From Pedobacter sp. (GTDB lineage: Bacteria; Desulfobacterota; Desulfuromonadia; Desulfuromonadales; Syntrophotaleaceae), in assembly GCA_050253415.1 (NCBI GenBank), contig JBFWJC010000001.1, forward strand, positions 1,695,660 to 1,759,659: 64,000 bases of DNA. Direction: 5' to 3'. Shown piece by piece: positions 54,001 to 64,000 of this stretch. Position numbers: made by a program. Each line of letters begins with the position of its first letter. Position 1 is the first letter of the stretch.

Positions 54001-57000
54001 ATGGCCGTTAAGCTGGCCGAAAAGAAACATTTTGAAGAGCAGGAGATCCTTGTCAAATACCTGCGTAATCGGGTGTTTAAAAACGTCTCGACCCAGCTAT
54101 CCGAACGTTTCCGTGAGGAGATCACCCAGCGGGCCGATCGCATCTATCGCACCATCGCCGAAGGGGACGAAGAACTGATCTGGGGGGAAAATTACCAGGT
54201 GGTGCTGCGCGACATGGCTGATGGGCAGCTGCGCGAACGCACCGACGATCAACTCTCCGGCGGTCAAATGATGAGCGCAGTGGTGGCCCTGCGCTTGGCC
54301 CTGCTGCAGACCATCGGTGCGCGGGTGGCCTTCTTCGACGAGCCGACCTCCAATCTCGATGCGTCGCGCCGTGAAAACCTCGCCAAAGCTTTCCGCGCCA
54401 TCGATGTCGGCCGCGAAGAAGTCACCGAGCACTGGTACGACCAATTGTTCCTGGTCAGCCACGATGTAGCCTTTACCGAGATTACCGACCAGATGATCCC
54501 GTTGGGGGAATGATCCATACGCTATGTGGCAAATCTTCGGGGTGTGGATGATCGCAACGTAAGAATATTCAGGTTGATCGAACCCTGTATTCTGGTTGCA
54601 GGCTGGTGGTGTGGGATCGGGAGATGTGATTTATTGCTGCCCAAGGCAATCCAGGGGACTGGCCACCGCATTGATATCCTTGGCCATGACGTGCGTGTAG
54701 ATCTCGGTGGTTTTGACGTCGGCATGCCCCATTAGTTCCTGTACCACTCGGATGTTAACGCCGTTCTCCAGCAAGTGGGTTGCGAAAGAATGTCGGAAGG
54801 TGTGACAGCCGACTCTTTTGTGGATTTGGGCGCGGGTTACGGCTATCTTCACCGCTTTTTGCAACCCCGACTCAAGCACATGGTGGCGACGCATGATCCC
54901 TGATCGGGGATCGGTACTCAATTGTTTAGACGGAAAAACGTATTGCCAGCCGAATTCCTTCGAAGCATGGGGGTATTTCTTGTCCAAAGCGTTGGGGAGA
55001 TAAACATTTCCGTATCCTTCATCCAGATCCTGATCATGAAGCTGCTTAACCTTGGTCATATGCGCCTGCAAGCCACTTTTTATTGTAGCCGGAAAAATAG
55101 TGGTTCGGTCTTTGCCCCCCTTGCCATCCCGCACATAAATAAGATTCCTTTCGAAATCAAGATCCTGAACGCGCAACCGTACAGATTCCATTAGCCTTAA
55201 ACCGCCCCCATATAATAGCTGAGCCATGAGCAAATGAACGCCGGACATCTGTGTCAGCACCCTTTGAACCTCGGCCTGGCTCATGACAACAGGCGGACGT
55301 CGTTGCTTTTGAGCCCTGATATGTTCGATGAGTTCTTCAACCGGCTGATCGAGTACATGCTTGTACAGGAAAATGATAGCGTTCAATGCCTGACGCTGGG
55401 TGGATGCAGCTACCTTTCCCTCTACTGCCAAATGACTCAGGAAAGCTTCTATTTCAAGTTTTCCCATATCTTTTGGGTGTCGTTTGGCATTGAAAAAGCG
55501 GATATAGCGCACAATCCAGTAGCAGTAGGTTGTCTCGGTGCGGTAGGCATAATGGTGATAACGCAGCACCTGGCGAACCTGCTCCATGAGTTTTAATTCA
55601 GGACTTGGCCGAAACTTTGTGTTGTTTTTCATAAGAAAAATTTATATTATCGGCGGGTGGAAAAATCAAGGGGATATTTTCCACTTTTACCCCTTTAATA
55701 ATTCAATAAGTGGAAAATTTTCCATGCTATAGGGGTGATATGACGGAAAATTTTCCATTTATCAACACTGTTGGACGTAGTCAAATGAAACTAAGCTCCC
55801 TAGTGGCTTTACTGGAAAACCGAATAAGTTCTTCGGAATTTCGTTGCTCAATTGCCTCTGATGTTGCTGAGTACTTGGAAAAGGCAAACACTCCAGGTTC
55901 TGTCATGCCAGTGAGAGTGACTGAAGATTTAGAGATAGCGTTGACGATTGAAAGCATTAAAGGCCTTTGCAGACTCTTCATAAATGCTCAACTGAAATCC
56001 GAGGAGTTAGCCTTTATTGCCGACGCCTTGCAACTGTCAGACAGTGTTAATTTCGACGAGGGTATATCTGAGTTCCTGGCCTCAATGACAGACCCAGAAA
56101 TAAATGGACCATTTACGGTCGATGATGCAAAGAAGATTCTTAGTGGTGCATAGAGTTACGCCCAACCAGCAAATCAAGCGGATGGAATGGGGCTGGGTGC
56201 TTCCCTAAAAACAAAATCAAACTGCGGTAGTAGGCCGAAACTTCGCGTTGCCACCGCTTATCACGACGTTAGAATTGGATAAAATATATGGAGGCATTAT
56301 GAATGCAAAACAATATGTTGAAATTATAAAAACTGTTGCAGAAGAAAACGATCTTGAAATAGACGGTTCTGATAAAGAATTTTCAATCGATGTTAACAAA
56401 TTTCATCACGTAGCATATTTAGTTAAAGAAAACAGCTCCGGTTATCTTCAAATACATCAATGGGAAAATGTCAATGAAAGTGAGAATGGAGAATGGGGAC
56501 GAGCAGTCTATTCTTTAAGGTGTCTGTCTGATGTAATTCAATTTTGTTCTATCTTACTAAGTAGCACTCAAATCTATGCAAGAAGATAAACCAAAAAATT
56601 CTAACCAGTCGTTTCACACCGTTCCGCTGCGCTCCACTCGGACTCGCTGAAGCTCGCCGGTGAACTAAACGTTGAGCAGGAAATGGTTCGTTCTGTCTTA
56701 ATAATATTATTAATTTGTTTTATTTCGGCAACTGTTGGGTGTATGCCCCTGAAACAGCAAGAAACAGTTGCCAAGAGCAACAATTACTTTTTTGCTTCAT
56801 ATATGGGTGGCTACCTTTTAATAGGCTTTGGAGGCGACTTAGCTGAGAAGAATTATGAGCTTATTGATGAGAAATCTCAGGTTATTGGGCCGAATAATAA
56901 GAGGTACTCAGTTATTCATCAGAAACACCCATATGATGTTGAGCGGGGTTCACGAAACCCAAGGGTTCAACTACGTATCAAAAACTCTAGGGGGAAAACC

Positions 57001-63000: not shown

Positions 63001-64000
63001 ATCAGATGCCATATGGATGGTGAAGCGGTATGAACCCGACAATTATCTGGTGCAGTTCTACAAGGTTGAGCCAGGCGAAAAGATCGGAGTCATTGAAGTT
63101 AGGTGCTTCGAGTTGAACGAGTCCCAGACTAAGGTGCAGGTAACCTACGAATACATCGGGTTGTCGGAGGCTGGTGATCGTTTTATATCCAGCTTTACCT
63201 CCTCCGAATACAACGCCTTCATAGACGAGTGGGAATCGCTGCTGGTGAGGTATTTTGAGGGAAAGCGCTAACAACGCCATCAACACGGACGGTCTTGGTC
63301 AACGCGCCTTTGGCACGTCGCCCAACCCCGCCGGTTATGGCAAACGTTATAAGTCATGAGAATTCTAGCCATATTCCTACTATTCCTTATCCTGTTAGGC
63401 TGTTCTGTGTCTGAACGCCAAGATTGGAAATTCATGGAATCAGTTGGCGGACTAACCATTGTCGGACAAGATAAGAACCCAAACTGGCTGATTATTCGTG
63501 GAGATGTTTCTGGGATTAAAGAGTTCAGCCACAAGCCCACGCAACTCAACTCAGCCATAGCAGTCAAAGAGGTTGAGGCCATCGTTCAAGGCGCAACCAT
63601 TCAGCTTTATGTCGTAACAACATTGGTGAGCGACAAATATCCAAATACTGAAATATCAGGTGTCAACATATCAGGGGCAAAAAAGGGAACCTGCCTGGTT
63701 CAATACATCAATCCTGATGGCACAACAGTAGATTTGAAACAAATCACTATATATTGACAAAAATTTATAACAATCTCATCAACCGGACTGGGTGTAACAG
63801 GGGCTCTTTCGTTTGGTCTCTGCAAGTTTCACTGTTCCAGCGCAGCCGGTTATAAAAATCGTTAGCCGTACACAAGTGACCTTACCCCGTTGACTGGACC
63901 AGTTTTAGGTTAGTGATTCCAGCCTTTATGTGCTGATTGAAGTTTGCAGCAAATTCCTCCGGGGTCAGTTGGTTGAGCGAACGATGTGGTCGGTGCGCGT

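Follow-up and report, generated by a model that had tools for sequence, protein, structure and literature searches.

The window analysed here, a 64,000-nt stretch of the genome of a soil-type Desulfuromonadales (Pelobacter-like) bacterium (G000; 4.1 Mb, short-read metagenome assembly of 18 contigs), carries a platform with an integrase gene, best explained as that of a sedentary chromosomal integron, and this genome has at least six attI sites, five of them with no intI alongside. That the single integrase, IntI, serves several of these attI platforms would be the best explanation of the data as a whole, with a probability of roughly 0.7 as judged from sequence comparison. Such action in trans, which the survey's finding had held to be most likely, appears well supported by the cassette junctions, by turnover at syntenic loci and by one insertion in a related genome, with the qualifiers given below and with G000 itself not demonstrating it.

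The integrase gene, its attI and the main array

Positions 54631-64000 of the window hold a complete chromosomal integron, with an intact intI on the minus strand, an attI, and 15 cassettes whose attC sites, all on the plus strand, follow immediately downstream of attI, up to an insertion sequence (IS) that truncates the array at the contig end. The integrase gene, its neighbour and the parts of the attI module are:

52042-54513, plus strand: SbcC/SMC-like ATPase gene, 823 aa (Pfam AAA_23, SMC_N, SbcC_Walker_B); flanking DNA, convergent with intI
54631-55632, minus strand: intI, intact integron integrase, 333 aa (TIGR02249; Pfam Phage_int_SAM_4 and Phage_integrase)
55648-55772, plus strand: attI module of about 125 bp, whose start is 15 nt away from the start codon of intI and whose last triplet is the crossover GTT (blastn copies and 21-copy alignment)
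55656-55666, plus strand: word 1, GGTGGAAAAAT, an inverted pair with word 2 (read from sequence, conserved in the 21-copy alignment)
55674-55684, plus strand: word 2, ATATTTTCCAC (read from sequence, 21-copy alignment)
55710-55724, plus strand: word 3, GTGGAAAATTTTCCA, a palindrome in the copy beside intI (read from sequence, MAFFT)
55744-55758, plus strand: word 4, CGGAAAATTTTCCAT, closest to the crossover (21-copy alignment)
55770-55772, plus strand: crossover GTT, with exchange between G and TT (identity of cassettes 1 and 8 starts at 55770; attI copies diverge afterwards)

IntI scores 447.9 bits against TIGR02249 (cut-off 265) over profile positions 2-315 of 315 and matches the Vibrio cholerae integrase VchIntIA (PDB 2A3V) end to end (E 1e-95), gap-free across residues 17-328. 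The gap-free part takes in both the IntI-specific extra stretch, near what we take to be patch III, and IYTHV; the catalytic R..HxxR..Y residues are likewise named as we presume them to be. A search of the whole assembly with tblastn and the TIGR02249 profile (cut-off 265 bits) returned one full intI (g01599, C1:1750290-1751291), the sole match over cut-off and the single intact gene that the survey had claimed, as well as remnants at C2:470300-470557 and C4:260647-260784. The count was made with 4535 masked bases (end of C4) and two 100-N gaps, so that a second intI is formally possible; none of the masked stretches adjoins an attI.

The SbcC-like gene also lies beside intI/attI in three related genomes, G006 (95% amino acid identity), G005 (73%) and G009 (70%), and thereby anchors the integrase-bearing platform at a fixed locus, as in sedentary chromosomal integrons. 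A mobile (class 1-5) integron was considered and rejected, the setting being chromosomal and syntenic and only three of the 14 distinct cassette proteins matching any Pfam family (Glyoxalase, and Imm58 and Trypco2, both below cut-offs). The array reads as follows:

55770-56274, plus strand: cassette 1, 122-aa ORF, an exact copy of cassette 8 that was inserted anew at attI
56160-56274, plus strand: attC 1 (nhmmer; R''/R' 6/7)
56599-56677, plus strand: attC 2, short type (by eye and fold; R'' TTCTAAC complements the preceding R' 7/7)
57142-57214, plus strand: attC 3, short type (nhmmer and fold, -14.9 kcal/mol over 65 nt; R''/R' 6/7)
57553-57656, plus strand: attC 4 (nhmmer, E 1e-21; 7/7)
58638-58752, plus strand: attC 5 (nhmmer; 7/7)
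59218-59321, plus strand: attC 6 (nhmmer; 7/7)
59771-59874, plus strand: attC 7 (nhmmer; 7/7)
59868-60372, plus strand: cassette 8 with attC 8 (60258-60372), source copy of cassette 1
60863-60923, plus strand: attC 9, short type, 61 nt (fold scan, -10 kcal/mol over 48-53 nt; 7/7)
60917-61561, plus strand: cassette 10, glyoxalase-family ORF 60987-61427 (Pfam Glyoxalase, E 7.6e-11), attC 10 at 61445-61561
61872-61977, plus strand: attC 11 (nhmmer; 7/7)
62255-62327, plus strand: attC 12, short type (nhmmer and fold, -21.5 kcal/mol over 65 nt; 6/7)
62694-62798, plus strand: attC 13 (nhmmer; 6/7)
63266-63352, plus strand: attC 14 (nhmmer and fold; 7/7)
63765-63867, plus strand: attC 15, last before the contig end (nhmmer; 7/7)
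63877-64000, minus strand: end of a probably IS3-like insertion sequence (inverted repeat and 3' end of the transposase frame), which interrupts the array and ends the contig

The main array thus has at least 15 cassettes, all promoterless; the survey had located it correctly and had counted 14 attC sites, one fewer than we find. Complementarity of the R' and R'' boxes holds for each of the 15 (seven of seven positions in 10 cassettes, six of seven in five), and the GC content of the cassettes is 39-47% as against 55-58% in the flank. Cassette 1, whose ORF matched no family in the Pfam search, is identical to positions 59868-60369 over 502 bp, beginning at GTT, and IntI has therefore acted recently. 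The IS3-like label at the contig end is suggested by the terminal TGA.. repeat and by the reading frame as read; the final 124-127 nt of the contig recur without any difference where contigs C2 and C3 start.

attI copies and arrays without an integrase gene

When the 168-nt intI-to-cassette spacer was used as a blastn query against the 4.1-Mb genome, it returned, apart from the query itself (C1:1751292-1751459), three full orphan copies: C1:335760-335885 (88.9% over 126 nt, E 1e-41), C2:119437-119564 on the minus strand (88.3% over 128 nt, E 3e-41) and C3:106416-106531 (83.8% over 117 nt, E 1e-27). Overall these are 84-89% identical to the query (E 1e-27 to 1e-42). Short matches at C1:~7562-7612 and C2:178255-178303, both on the minus strand and the latter within a prophage, represent deletion forms, which arose by deletion between repeated words. 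All four attI copies reported by the survey were accordingly recovered, together with two shortened ones. As the survey had also stated, identity among the copies stops exactly at the GTT crossover: by MAFFT, similarity in the four full copies begins at about TATCAG..GGTGGAAAAAT and stops at ..CAACA(A/C)TGTT, with unalignable flanks on either side.

The words are four spaced GGAAAAT/ATTTTCC elements arranged as two inverted pairs. Their spacing is the same in all four full copies, and the copies in G000 differ mutually by 9-21% across the module. Word 3 reads ..AATAGTCCA in the three full orphans, and its palindromic 14-mer (at most one mismatch) occurs at five places in the genome, each inside an attI copy. 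An alignment of 21 attI copies from 12 genomes lost similarity after TGTT in every copy; nine abut an intI start, while 12 have no intI within 1.5 kb. The same layout lies upstream of IntI relatives of 65-87% identity, and in the more distant of them (65-75%) the module abuts intI with the words arranged in the same way. Because the 125-bp module abuts the intI start, in distant clades as well, and because the palindrome is confined to attI copies, the module is almost certainly a true attI.

The arrays headed by these copies were mapped with an nhmmer profile built from 14 main-array attC sites (E<1e-3, then iterated). It gave 43 matches genome-wide in the first run and 45, 46 and 44 on iteration, with a union of 48 sites; the arrays are those that the survey had listed. 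At least three types of attC, by length and sequence, are present. The orphan arrays hold seven attC sites (C1_335), five (C2_119), two plus one found by fold (C3_106) and three plus one or two found by fold (C1_7k). Each of the four therefore comprises two or more attC sites with no intI nearby, which is the definition of a CALIN. Neither tblastn nor TIGR02249 found an IntI match beside any orphan attI in G000, remnants included, in keeping with the earlier statement that every orphan heads its own array without intI. At all six attI copies the opening letters of the first cassette are complementary to R'' in that cassette's attC, twice at 7/7 and four times at 6/7.

Near-identical cassettes do sit in different arrays, as had been claimed. 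Cassette 3 of orphan array B equals a cassette on contig C8 (99.7% over 669 bp), and main-array cassette 10 recurs both on C8 (99.1%) and as cassette 3 of the C3 orphan array (95.3%). The identity runs exactly from G|TT to G|TT, cassette edge to cassette edge, and the neighbours differ between arrays. Cassettes common to several arrays stand in third or deeper position, where attC x attC exchange could also yield them, and the C8 array, which holds two of the three shared cassettes, lies on a contig that begins in an IS and shows no head. The first and second cassettes of the G000 orphan arrays have no twin anywhere in the genome, so we infer rather than see insertion at the orphan attI sites of G000.

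If one integrase does serve these platforms, IntI made from the window's gene would bind the words of any attI copy, would bring the bound site together with the attC of an excised cassette, folded from its bottom strand, and would exchange strands at G|TT. Acting on any attI copy, the one enzyme could then load, unload and shuffle cassettes on several arrays.

Orphan platforms in related genomes and alternative explanations

The attI module is present in 13 of 41 related genomes and in 11 of the 16 genomes of the family. Four orphan loci of G000 are syntenic with loci in other species (G006 shares the hydrolase and DsbC loci, G005 the M16 peptidase locus and G002 C1_7k), and these carry an attI or its wreck. 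The orphans are old 'satellite' platforms; they did not arise lately by copying of the main attI. The DsbC locus holds three cassettes in G000 and one in G006, none in common, next to a downstream flank that is 88.8% identical; at the hydrolase locus an array of about 9.6 kb with five attC sites in G000 corresponds to about 1.1 kb in G006. Such different cassette sets could partly reflect differential loss. Contigs from two other metagenomes (two per run) match the stretch from M16 through el to attI and then diverge exactly at L001 position 7886, which weakly supports service of several platforms by one IntI but could also reflect paralogous attI copies.

The complete, single-contig genome of G005 has four attI copies, two of them orphans. 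At one of these (orphan 2), the first cassette matches, at 100% identity over about 380 nt, one that lies deep within the array of an intI-linked integron, the identity starting at G|TTAGAAAC. This is a recent insertion at an orphan attI. The orphan attI copies of G005 resemble the genome's own intI-linked attI at 96-97% over the crossover-proximal two thirds and at 79% over the distal third.

These relatives also bear on an alternative that we consider unlikely, namely that the orphans are only relics left after deletion of intI, with frozen arrays and with cassettes shared through excision, attC x attC exchange or old duplication. Relatives G005 and G003 do hold several complete integrons, each with three intI genes over the TIGR02249 cut-off, and in G007 two orphans keep apparent first intI codons (read by eye), which implies that at least some orphans arose via intI loss; no intI remnant, however, adjoins any G000 orphan. 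In G009, complete in one contig, intI is gone from the ancestral SbcC-like locus and attI is retained. Both G009 and G008 are without a TIGR02249 match over cut-off, yet have attI copies with largely intact words, so that some orphans are relics and an intact orphan attI alone is no proof of use. Decay is visible in G006, whose hydrolase locus has lost the larger part of its attI, and in the deletion forms C1_7k of G000, C2 of G006 and C80 of G002, and the absence of first-position twins in G000 would suit frozen arrays. What frozen arrays fit poorly is that words, spacing and crossover outlast speciation while both flanks become unalignable, that close relatives have wholly different cassettes at the same orphan locus, that orphan array B has the 99.7% identical cassette in third place, after two that are unique, and that the identical cassette in G005 lies exactly at an orphan attI crossover. 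One integrase and at least six attI sites, each at the head of its own array, suggest that many orphan cassette arrays are still working platforms and not wreckage, and the orphans of G000 are probably still in use.

It is very improbable that the 125-bp module, instead of being a recombination site, has a regulatory or promoter function or forms one end of some other mobile element and merely happens to adjoin cassette arrays. Its words are admittedly unlike GTTRRRY core boxes, it contains a ribosome-binding-like site and an ATG (as read from the alignment), and the intI promoter must fall inside it, only 15 nt separating the module from the start codon. Against this, G|TT is where similarity stops in each of the 21 copies, duplicated cassettes begin at the GTT triplet both in the window and in G005, first cassettes complement their own R'' box, and the module always lies at the intI start in intI-linked copies, those of distant IntI clades included; moreover, the arrays examined have no inverted second module end at the far side and end in an attC followed by common chromosomal flank.

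Equally remote is an assembly or binning artefact, in which further strains or species binned together, or repeats that were collapsed or made chimeric, would have supplied the extra attI copies: contig ends do overlap by 121-127 nt at repeats, IS copies break arrays and estimated contamination is 1.25%, but two orphans lie on intI's own 1.76-Mb contig and others on 0.8- and 0.37-Mb contigs amid housekeeping genes, the divergence of the attI copies shows that they are not collapsed repeats, and the complete G005 genome has the same layout. Mis-joins within arrays of G000 are possible, given short-read metagenome assembly.

At most orphans of this genus a small promoter-terminator unit ('el') stands in place of intI, and we infer that it has a role. 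On a bolder reading, which we hold to be possible though doubtful, the integron is distributed, its platform split by design and not by decay into one intI gene and satellite attI sites headed mostly by el, and kept by selection across species. If so, one stress-controlled enzyme would feed several independently placed, perhaps independently regulated arrays, and many CALINs elsewhere would be the same thing, missed for want of a known attI.

Relation to known integrons

Like attI1 of class 1 integrons, the module has four protein-binding-type repeats upstream of G|TT, falls in the size range of about 60-130 bp and abuts intI; its GGAAAAT words and two-inverted-pair layout are unlike attI1, and IntI binding is here a prediction. 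In attI1 the IntI1 binding sites are the L and R boxes and the direct repeats DR1 and DR2, as given in PMC9892861. With the V. cholerae superintegron the window's platform shares a chromosomal setting at a conserved locus, a full-length IntI match, and an apparently long array of mostly unknown low-GC cassettes with attC sites related within the genome. Integrons of this class have large arrays, of tens of cassettes or more, with homogeneous attC sites; here 15 cassettes precede the IS, and about 48 attC sites are spread over the genome. The textbook sedentary chromosomal integron, as outlined with IntegronFinder 2.0 (PMC9024848), has one attI beside intI, whereas here, in contrast to the Vibrio type, five or more additional attI sites, none with intI, stand at the heads of separate arrays elsewhere in the genome, and relatives are organised likewise.

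A CALIN is a cluster of attC sites without integrase, whose cassettes are possibly excised by an integrase elsewhere in the genome; rearrangement and intI loss are hard to separate as its origin, and in the passages concerned attI is described as unknown in the majority of integrons and is not searched in CALINs (Cury et al. 2016, PMC4889954). The orphan arrays fit the definition but differ in that each has a recognisable, conserved attI with proper junctions, and in that their loci are syntenic between species with different cassettes. The only printed case we found of a CALIN with its own attI beside a complete integron of the same attI is the Shewanella sp. prophage M16-3, in which both open with one and the same attI, 28 bp long and of the Shewanella type (Qi et al. 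2023, PMC9892861). As the passage stands, this is a single pair in one prophage, mentioned in passing without comparative, junction or sharing analysis; here, there are five orphans per genome, across a bacterial family and mostly chromosomal. Xanthomonas chromosomal integrons with inactivated intI, whose activity is described as progressively lost (10.1101/2025.06.18.660453), likewise have an ancestral platform at a fixed locus, arrays persisting after intI loss, as in G009 and G008, and CALINs at conserved positions. The present genome differs from them by an intact IntI alongside several orphan platforms and by footprints of recent cassette movement.

CALINs are more numerous than complete integrons in bacterial genomes and are mostly taken for debris, for rearranged pieces or for insertions at off-target sites, their attI being almost never known in the accounts drawn on here (Cury 2016, PMC4889954; Ghaly 2021). 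A recognisable attI in this lineage makes recruitment by integrase-less arrays directly testable, and the comparative data have platforms staying in place while cassettes turn over. Were the satellites active, integron capacity and expression would not be confined to one promoter-proximal position per genome, 'functional integrons' would be undercounted, and many CALINs would be re-classified once searches were guided by attI, with a separate attI model for each IntI clade. Six attI variants, full and minimal, with one cognate IntI are available as a resource. Among the deletion forms, a natural short attI of one inverted word pair and the crossover recurs in C1_7k of G000 and C2 of G006 and still stands beside intI in C80 of G002; from it the minimal site of this class of attI can be guessed at for the first time.

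The integrase-bearing platform

The complete integron occupies the final 9.4 kb of the window, at the end of contig C1; its landmarks are listed here in window coordinates, which are used throughout unless a contig is named.

54631-55632, minus strand: intI, encoding a 333-aa integrase (TIGR02249, 447.9 bits against a cut-off of 265)
55648-55772: attI module of about 125 bp, beginning 15 nt from the intI start codon
from about 63877: end of an IS3-like element that interrupts the array after attC 15

The integrase carries two Pfam integrase domains and aligns without gaps, over residues 17-328, to the solved Vibrio cholerae IntI (2A3V). 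Its attI module contains four words, GGTGGAAAAAT, ATATTTTCCAC, GTGGAAAATTTTCCA and CGGAAAATTTTCCAT, and terminates in ..ATCAACACTGTT. The main array begins at the GTT at 55770 and comprises 15 cassettes, in every one of which the start box complements the cassette's own attC R'' (10 at 7/7 positions, five at 6/7); the GC content is 55-58% in the flank and 39-47% in the array. A family search with the 14 distinct cassette proteins gave one Glyoxalase match and two matches below cut-off, and returned no family for the other 11. Within attI (55732-55772), a ribosome-binding-like AGGGGTGAT is followed by an ATG, an arrangement that by our own count recurs in 18 of 21 aligned copies, and the frame from this ATG is open for 10 codons to the crossover and hence runs into the first cassette. 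This internal frame resembles the short attI1 reading frames that are said to aid the translation of class 1 cassettes. A promoter and terminator scan flagged no promoter in attI.

Cassette 1 (55770-56274) is 100% identical to cassette 8 (59868-60372) over 502 bp, and since this identity starts at the attI GTT, the crossover point is fixed. Cassette 1 is the product expected had an excised copy of cassette 8 been re-inserted at attI, and the integrase has been active recently.

Orphan attI copies and the arrays they head

Comparison of the intI-to-cassette spacer with the 4.1-Mb assembly by blastn bore out the three additional attI copies of the survey's finding (88.9%, 88.3% and 83.8% identity, E 1e-41 to 1e-27). 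All four copies counted there were found, but the total is six, as two deletion forms have to be added. When the flanks are included in a MAFFT alignment, the similarity begins at about TATCAG..GGTGGAAAAAT and ends after TGTT, as had been described, with both flanks unalignable; the word spacing is identical across the four full copies. The two deletion forms are:

C1:~7562-7612, minus strand: short attI C1_7k, retaining word 1, one ATTTTCCAC and the crossover
C2:178255-178303, minus strand: short attI C2_178, with word 2, a fused word 3/4 and a crossover-like ..CTGTT

The C1_7k form arose by deletion from word 2 to its direct repeat, word 4. This internal loss of 75 bp, between the ATTTTCCAC of the two words, is seen also at the C2 end of G006 (L184) and on contig C80 of G002 (L032), both related genomes; it has arisen at least three times, in one case still adjoining an intact intI, and the resulting natural "minimal attI" consists of one inverted word pair and the crossover. 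The 14-mer palindrome of words 3 and 4 occurs, with up to one mismatch, at five places genome-wide, all five in attI copies, which rules it out as an operator for some general regulator. C2_178 sits in a prophage, adjoining its terminase gene (L007 7102-9078). About 1 kb downstream of this short attI-like site, the prophage (C2:177132-178303; L007 5133-6304) holds one attC whose R'' complements the junction at 6/7 positions, which resembles a gene cassette taken up by a phage.

As claimed, the genome has a single intI above the family cut-off, the search covering the assembly apart from 4535 masked bases at the C4 end and two 100-N gaps. Two remnants of intI lie at C2:470300-470557 (plus strand) and C4:260647-260784 (minus strand); both are C-terminal parts, 73.7% identical to each other over 323 nt, and behind each stands an attC that points the same way as the remnant, an unusual arrangement in an integron. 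Some 40 nt upstream of the C4 remnant is a copy of "el", a promoter-terminator-like unit of about 160 nt. Upstream of the three full orphans (attI copies lacking an adjacent intI), where none had been reported, we likewise found no integrase remnant; the genes there are ordinary, high in GC and in the same orientation, encoding an M16-type peptidase, an alpha/beta hydrolase and a DsbC-like protein.

Each orphan does head an array, with attC sites downstream of all five, as follows.

attC sites downstream of the orphan attI copies
C1_335 (full): seven
C2_119 (full, minus strand): five
C3_106 (full): two, and one by fold
C1_7k (short): three, and one or two by fold
C2_178 (short): one

Genome-wide, the 45 attC sites of the earlier count became 43 in an nhmmer search with a profile of 14 main-array sites, and 45, 46 and 44 in its iterations, the union being 48. 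Scanners based on arm complementarity recovered one of 15 known sites and were dropped; they miss the sites because the R-L spacers are unpaired here. The 14 aligned sites (MAFFT) were too ragged for a covariance model, and a constrained-fold scan, which detects short attC types and misses long ones, served as a supplement only, its hits beyond the known arrays being candidates. At all six attI copies the first cassette begins with the complement of its own attC R'' (7/7 twice, 6/7 four times), so that the junctions look like true attI x attC products.

For the further arrays on C8, C16 and C5 we recognised no head. Exact overlaps of contig ends (15-200 nt) occur only at simple repeats, and C8 and both ends of C1 terminate in IS copies, so the C8 and C16 arrays are not assignable to a platform. 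Contigs C2 and C3 both start with the sequence that forms the final 124-127 nt of C1. The left end of C1 (C1:1-130) and the end of C8 (C8:118370-118498) carry the same IS end in opposite orientation; IS3-like elements interrupt the cassette arrays, and the contigs break at these elements.

All-against-all blastn of the arrays upheld the sharing of near-identical cassettes between them. Cassette 3 of C1_335 matches a C8 cassette at 99.7% over 669 bp, and main-array cassette 10, of the glyoxalase family, recurs at 99.1% identity as another C8 cassette and at 95.3% as cassette 3 of C3_106. Each shared pair is identical from G|TT to G|TT with differing neighbour cassettes, the signature of integrase-mediated movement rather than of segmental duplication. 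The attI modules themselves diverge by 9-21% over the module, and the cassette copies are therefore far younger than the platforms. The first and second cassettes of the orphans have no twin elsewhere in the genome.

The anatomy of the platforms is certain. The cassette-precise sharing strongly supports the survey's proposal that the orphan arrays are served by IntI in trans. Insertion of cassettes by IntI at the orphan attI sites, which for this genome we infer, is supported by the signatures at the junctions, by the turnover of cassettes at syntenic loci and by one case in a relative (the last two below). In the terms of Cury et al. (2016, PMC4889954), the element is a sedentary chromosomal integron accompanied by CALINs (attC clusters lacking an integrase). 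Those authors note that attI goes unrecognised for most integrons, that an integrase encoded elsewhere might make use of CALIN cassettes, and that rearrangement is hard to separate from integrase loss. Later papers repeat the in-trans mobilisation of CALIN cassettes as an assumption, and attI-headed CALINs are hardly in print within the part of the literature covered. Orphan arrays headed by attI make the status of CALINs testable, which is relevant to integron specialists.

Orphan platforms in related genomes

The repeated attI is real, far beyond chance and broader than the survey had noted, with six copies in this genome and with no intI beside 12 of 21 aligned family copies. The module is present in 13 of 41 related genomes, this one counted; within the family, 11 of the 16 other genomes have it. 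In an alignment of 21 copies, full or nearly so, drawn from 12 genomes, similarity is lost directly after TGTT in all 21, nine adjoin an IntI of 78-100% identity, and 12 have no IntI within 1.5 kb. The four-word layout also lies directly upstream of intI in IntI relatives of 65-75% identity from other lineages, which supports the view that the words belong to the attI site of this IntI clade. Among named records, the closest IntI proteins come from metagenome-assembled genomes labelled Pelobacter sp. and Desulfuromonadales.

Some orphans of the family are plainly relics. Two orphans in G007 retain apparent first codons of intI (read by eye), so loss of intI does produce orphans, and the complete genome G009, together with G008, keeps orphan attI copies with no integrase above cut-off, so an orphan can outlive its integrase. 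The G009 copy lies near the SbcC-like gene that flanks intI in our window, with about 6 kb of other DNA between. The G007 orphans (L076 8979-9109 and 15571-15697) are 6.6 kb apart, and the DNA upstream of them is nearly identical over more than 400 nt, a stretch that includes the apparent first codons of intI; they represent a tandem segmental duplication of an integrase-deleted platform. In G008 (L080 7316-8360), a gene for a 300-aa Xer-like tyrosine recombinase (33% identical to IntI; TIGR02249 122 bits, below cut-off) lies about 150 nt past the crossover of an orphan attI and reads in the direction of the array, in the manner of a first cassette.

The orphans of our genome are old platforms whose cargo changes. 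Four of its orphan loci have counterparts in other species. At the hydrolase locus, the closest relative, G006 (IntI 97% identical), matches our genome at 89.7% identity through the gene upstream, the intergenic DNA and attI word 1; past this word its attI is deleted into half an attC, and the chromosomal flank on the downstream side picks up again precisely where our last attC ends, the array measuring about 9.6 kb here and about 1.1 kb in G006. At the DsbC locus, G006 carries a single cassette behind an attI of short form that belongs to the same sub-lineage, our genome three cassettes and a degenerate fourth, none of them in common, and the flank beyond the array is 88.8% identical over 4.5 kb; this locus is free of attI in G005, a complete single-contig genome from the same genus. 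Around the M16 peptidase locus, the two G005 orphans lie downstream of the orthologous gene, at distances of about 8 and 17 kb, and G003 has the gene and "el" with no attI; tblastx finds nothing in our genome for the G003 DNA after "el", and no clean empty site is definable there. The C1_7k locus is syntenic with an orphan in G002, whose attI is full length.

G005 holds four attI copies, two beside intact intI genes and two orphans that head arrays of at least seven and at least two attC sites. The first cassette of its orphan 2 equals, at 100% over about 380 nt, a cassette deep within the array that belongs to the integron at 0.65 Mb, and the left contexts differ, ..CCACAATG|TTAGAAAC.. in the attI copy as against ..GAGCGACG|TTAGAAAC.. 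in the attC copy, with identity beginning at the crossover. We read this as a direct footprint of insertion at an orphan attI. Over the crossover-proximal two thirds the G005 orphan attI copies are 96-97% identical to the intI-linked attI of that genome at 1.6 Mb, as against 79% over the distal third, which points to gene conversion between the within-genome copies or to a common constraint on them.

A 1.8-kb IS with a DDE transposase lies behind the attC of this G005 cassette. Carriage of the cassette by the IS was rejected, as the shared segment begins at the G|TT of an attI in the one case and of an attC in the other. The IS, whose transposase has 516 aa (DDE_Tnp_1_6, DUF772), recurs directly behind a similar attC in five places of the arrays and may target attC sites.

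Copies of the G005 IS
L071 3592-5488
L071 17392-19288
L073 1-2010
L074 14486-16408
L082 4123-5797

Metagenome contigs were compared for runs X1, X2, X3 and X5. The sampled words of the C1_335 locus were all present in one run, which may be the source of the assembly, at 40% and 28% in two others and at 17% in X5. One X2 contig covers the end of the M16 gene, "el" and the start of attI. In both X2 and X5, two contigs match attI up to the crossover (L001 position 7886) and then diverge from the reference; this is a weak hint, as paralogous attI copies are up to 91% alike and the contigs may belong to other platforms. The small shares of the words in runs X4 and X6-X10 carry no information on habitat. 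Run X2 covers M16-el-attI and has little or no cover over most cassettes of the C1_335 array, absent cover being no evidence. Contig joints with sides under 30 letters (7885>13894 and 9998>11173) were left out.

The "el" unit upstream of the orphans

In the place of intI, "el" precedes the orphans C1_335, C1_7k and C2_119, and it also stands before both orphans of G005, that of G002 and the decayed site of G006; C3_106 has only its promoter-like part. In this genus most orphan attI sites have the unit immediately upstream. Its order is ACATTAGAA..TTGACA, a gap of about 17-18 nt, TATTTAT, a conserved GGAGGGGACATGC, a GC-rich nested hairpin and a T run.

Copies of "el" in the genome under study
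C1:335588-335744, plus strand
C1:7703-7856, minus strand
C2:~119620-119790, minus strand
C6:187629-187781, minus strand
C2:681698-681854, minus strand
C4:260819-260979, minus strand

Copies in relatives lie on the stretches L095, L101, L104, L107, L096, L098, L078 and L083. The unit is multi-copy and not restricted to attI: it was found in six of 18 genomes searched, with four matches each in our genome and G005 in that search, and an attI follows three of the six copies known overall in the former and two of four in the latter. The link of "el" to orphan platforms is statistical, not mechanistic. Rfam gave no family at gathering score on four orphan loci, leaving "el" unmatched, and the promoter and terminator scan flagged neither its promoter nor its terminator; the assignment of both rests on reading of the sequence and on the conserved hairpin. 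This terminator hairpin is the sole consensus structure over 14 aligned copies, with 15 pairs, three of them showing compensatory changes, and we read "el" as a putative small transcription unit, a small RNA or a leader. On contig C35 of G003, an 84%-identical copy immediately follows an intact intI and is oriented convergently with it.
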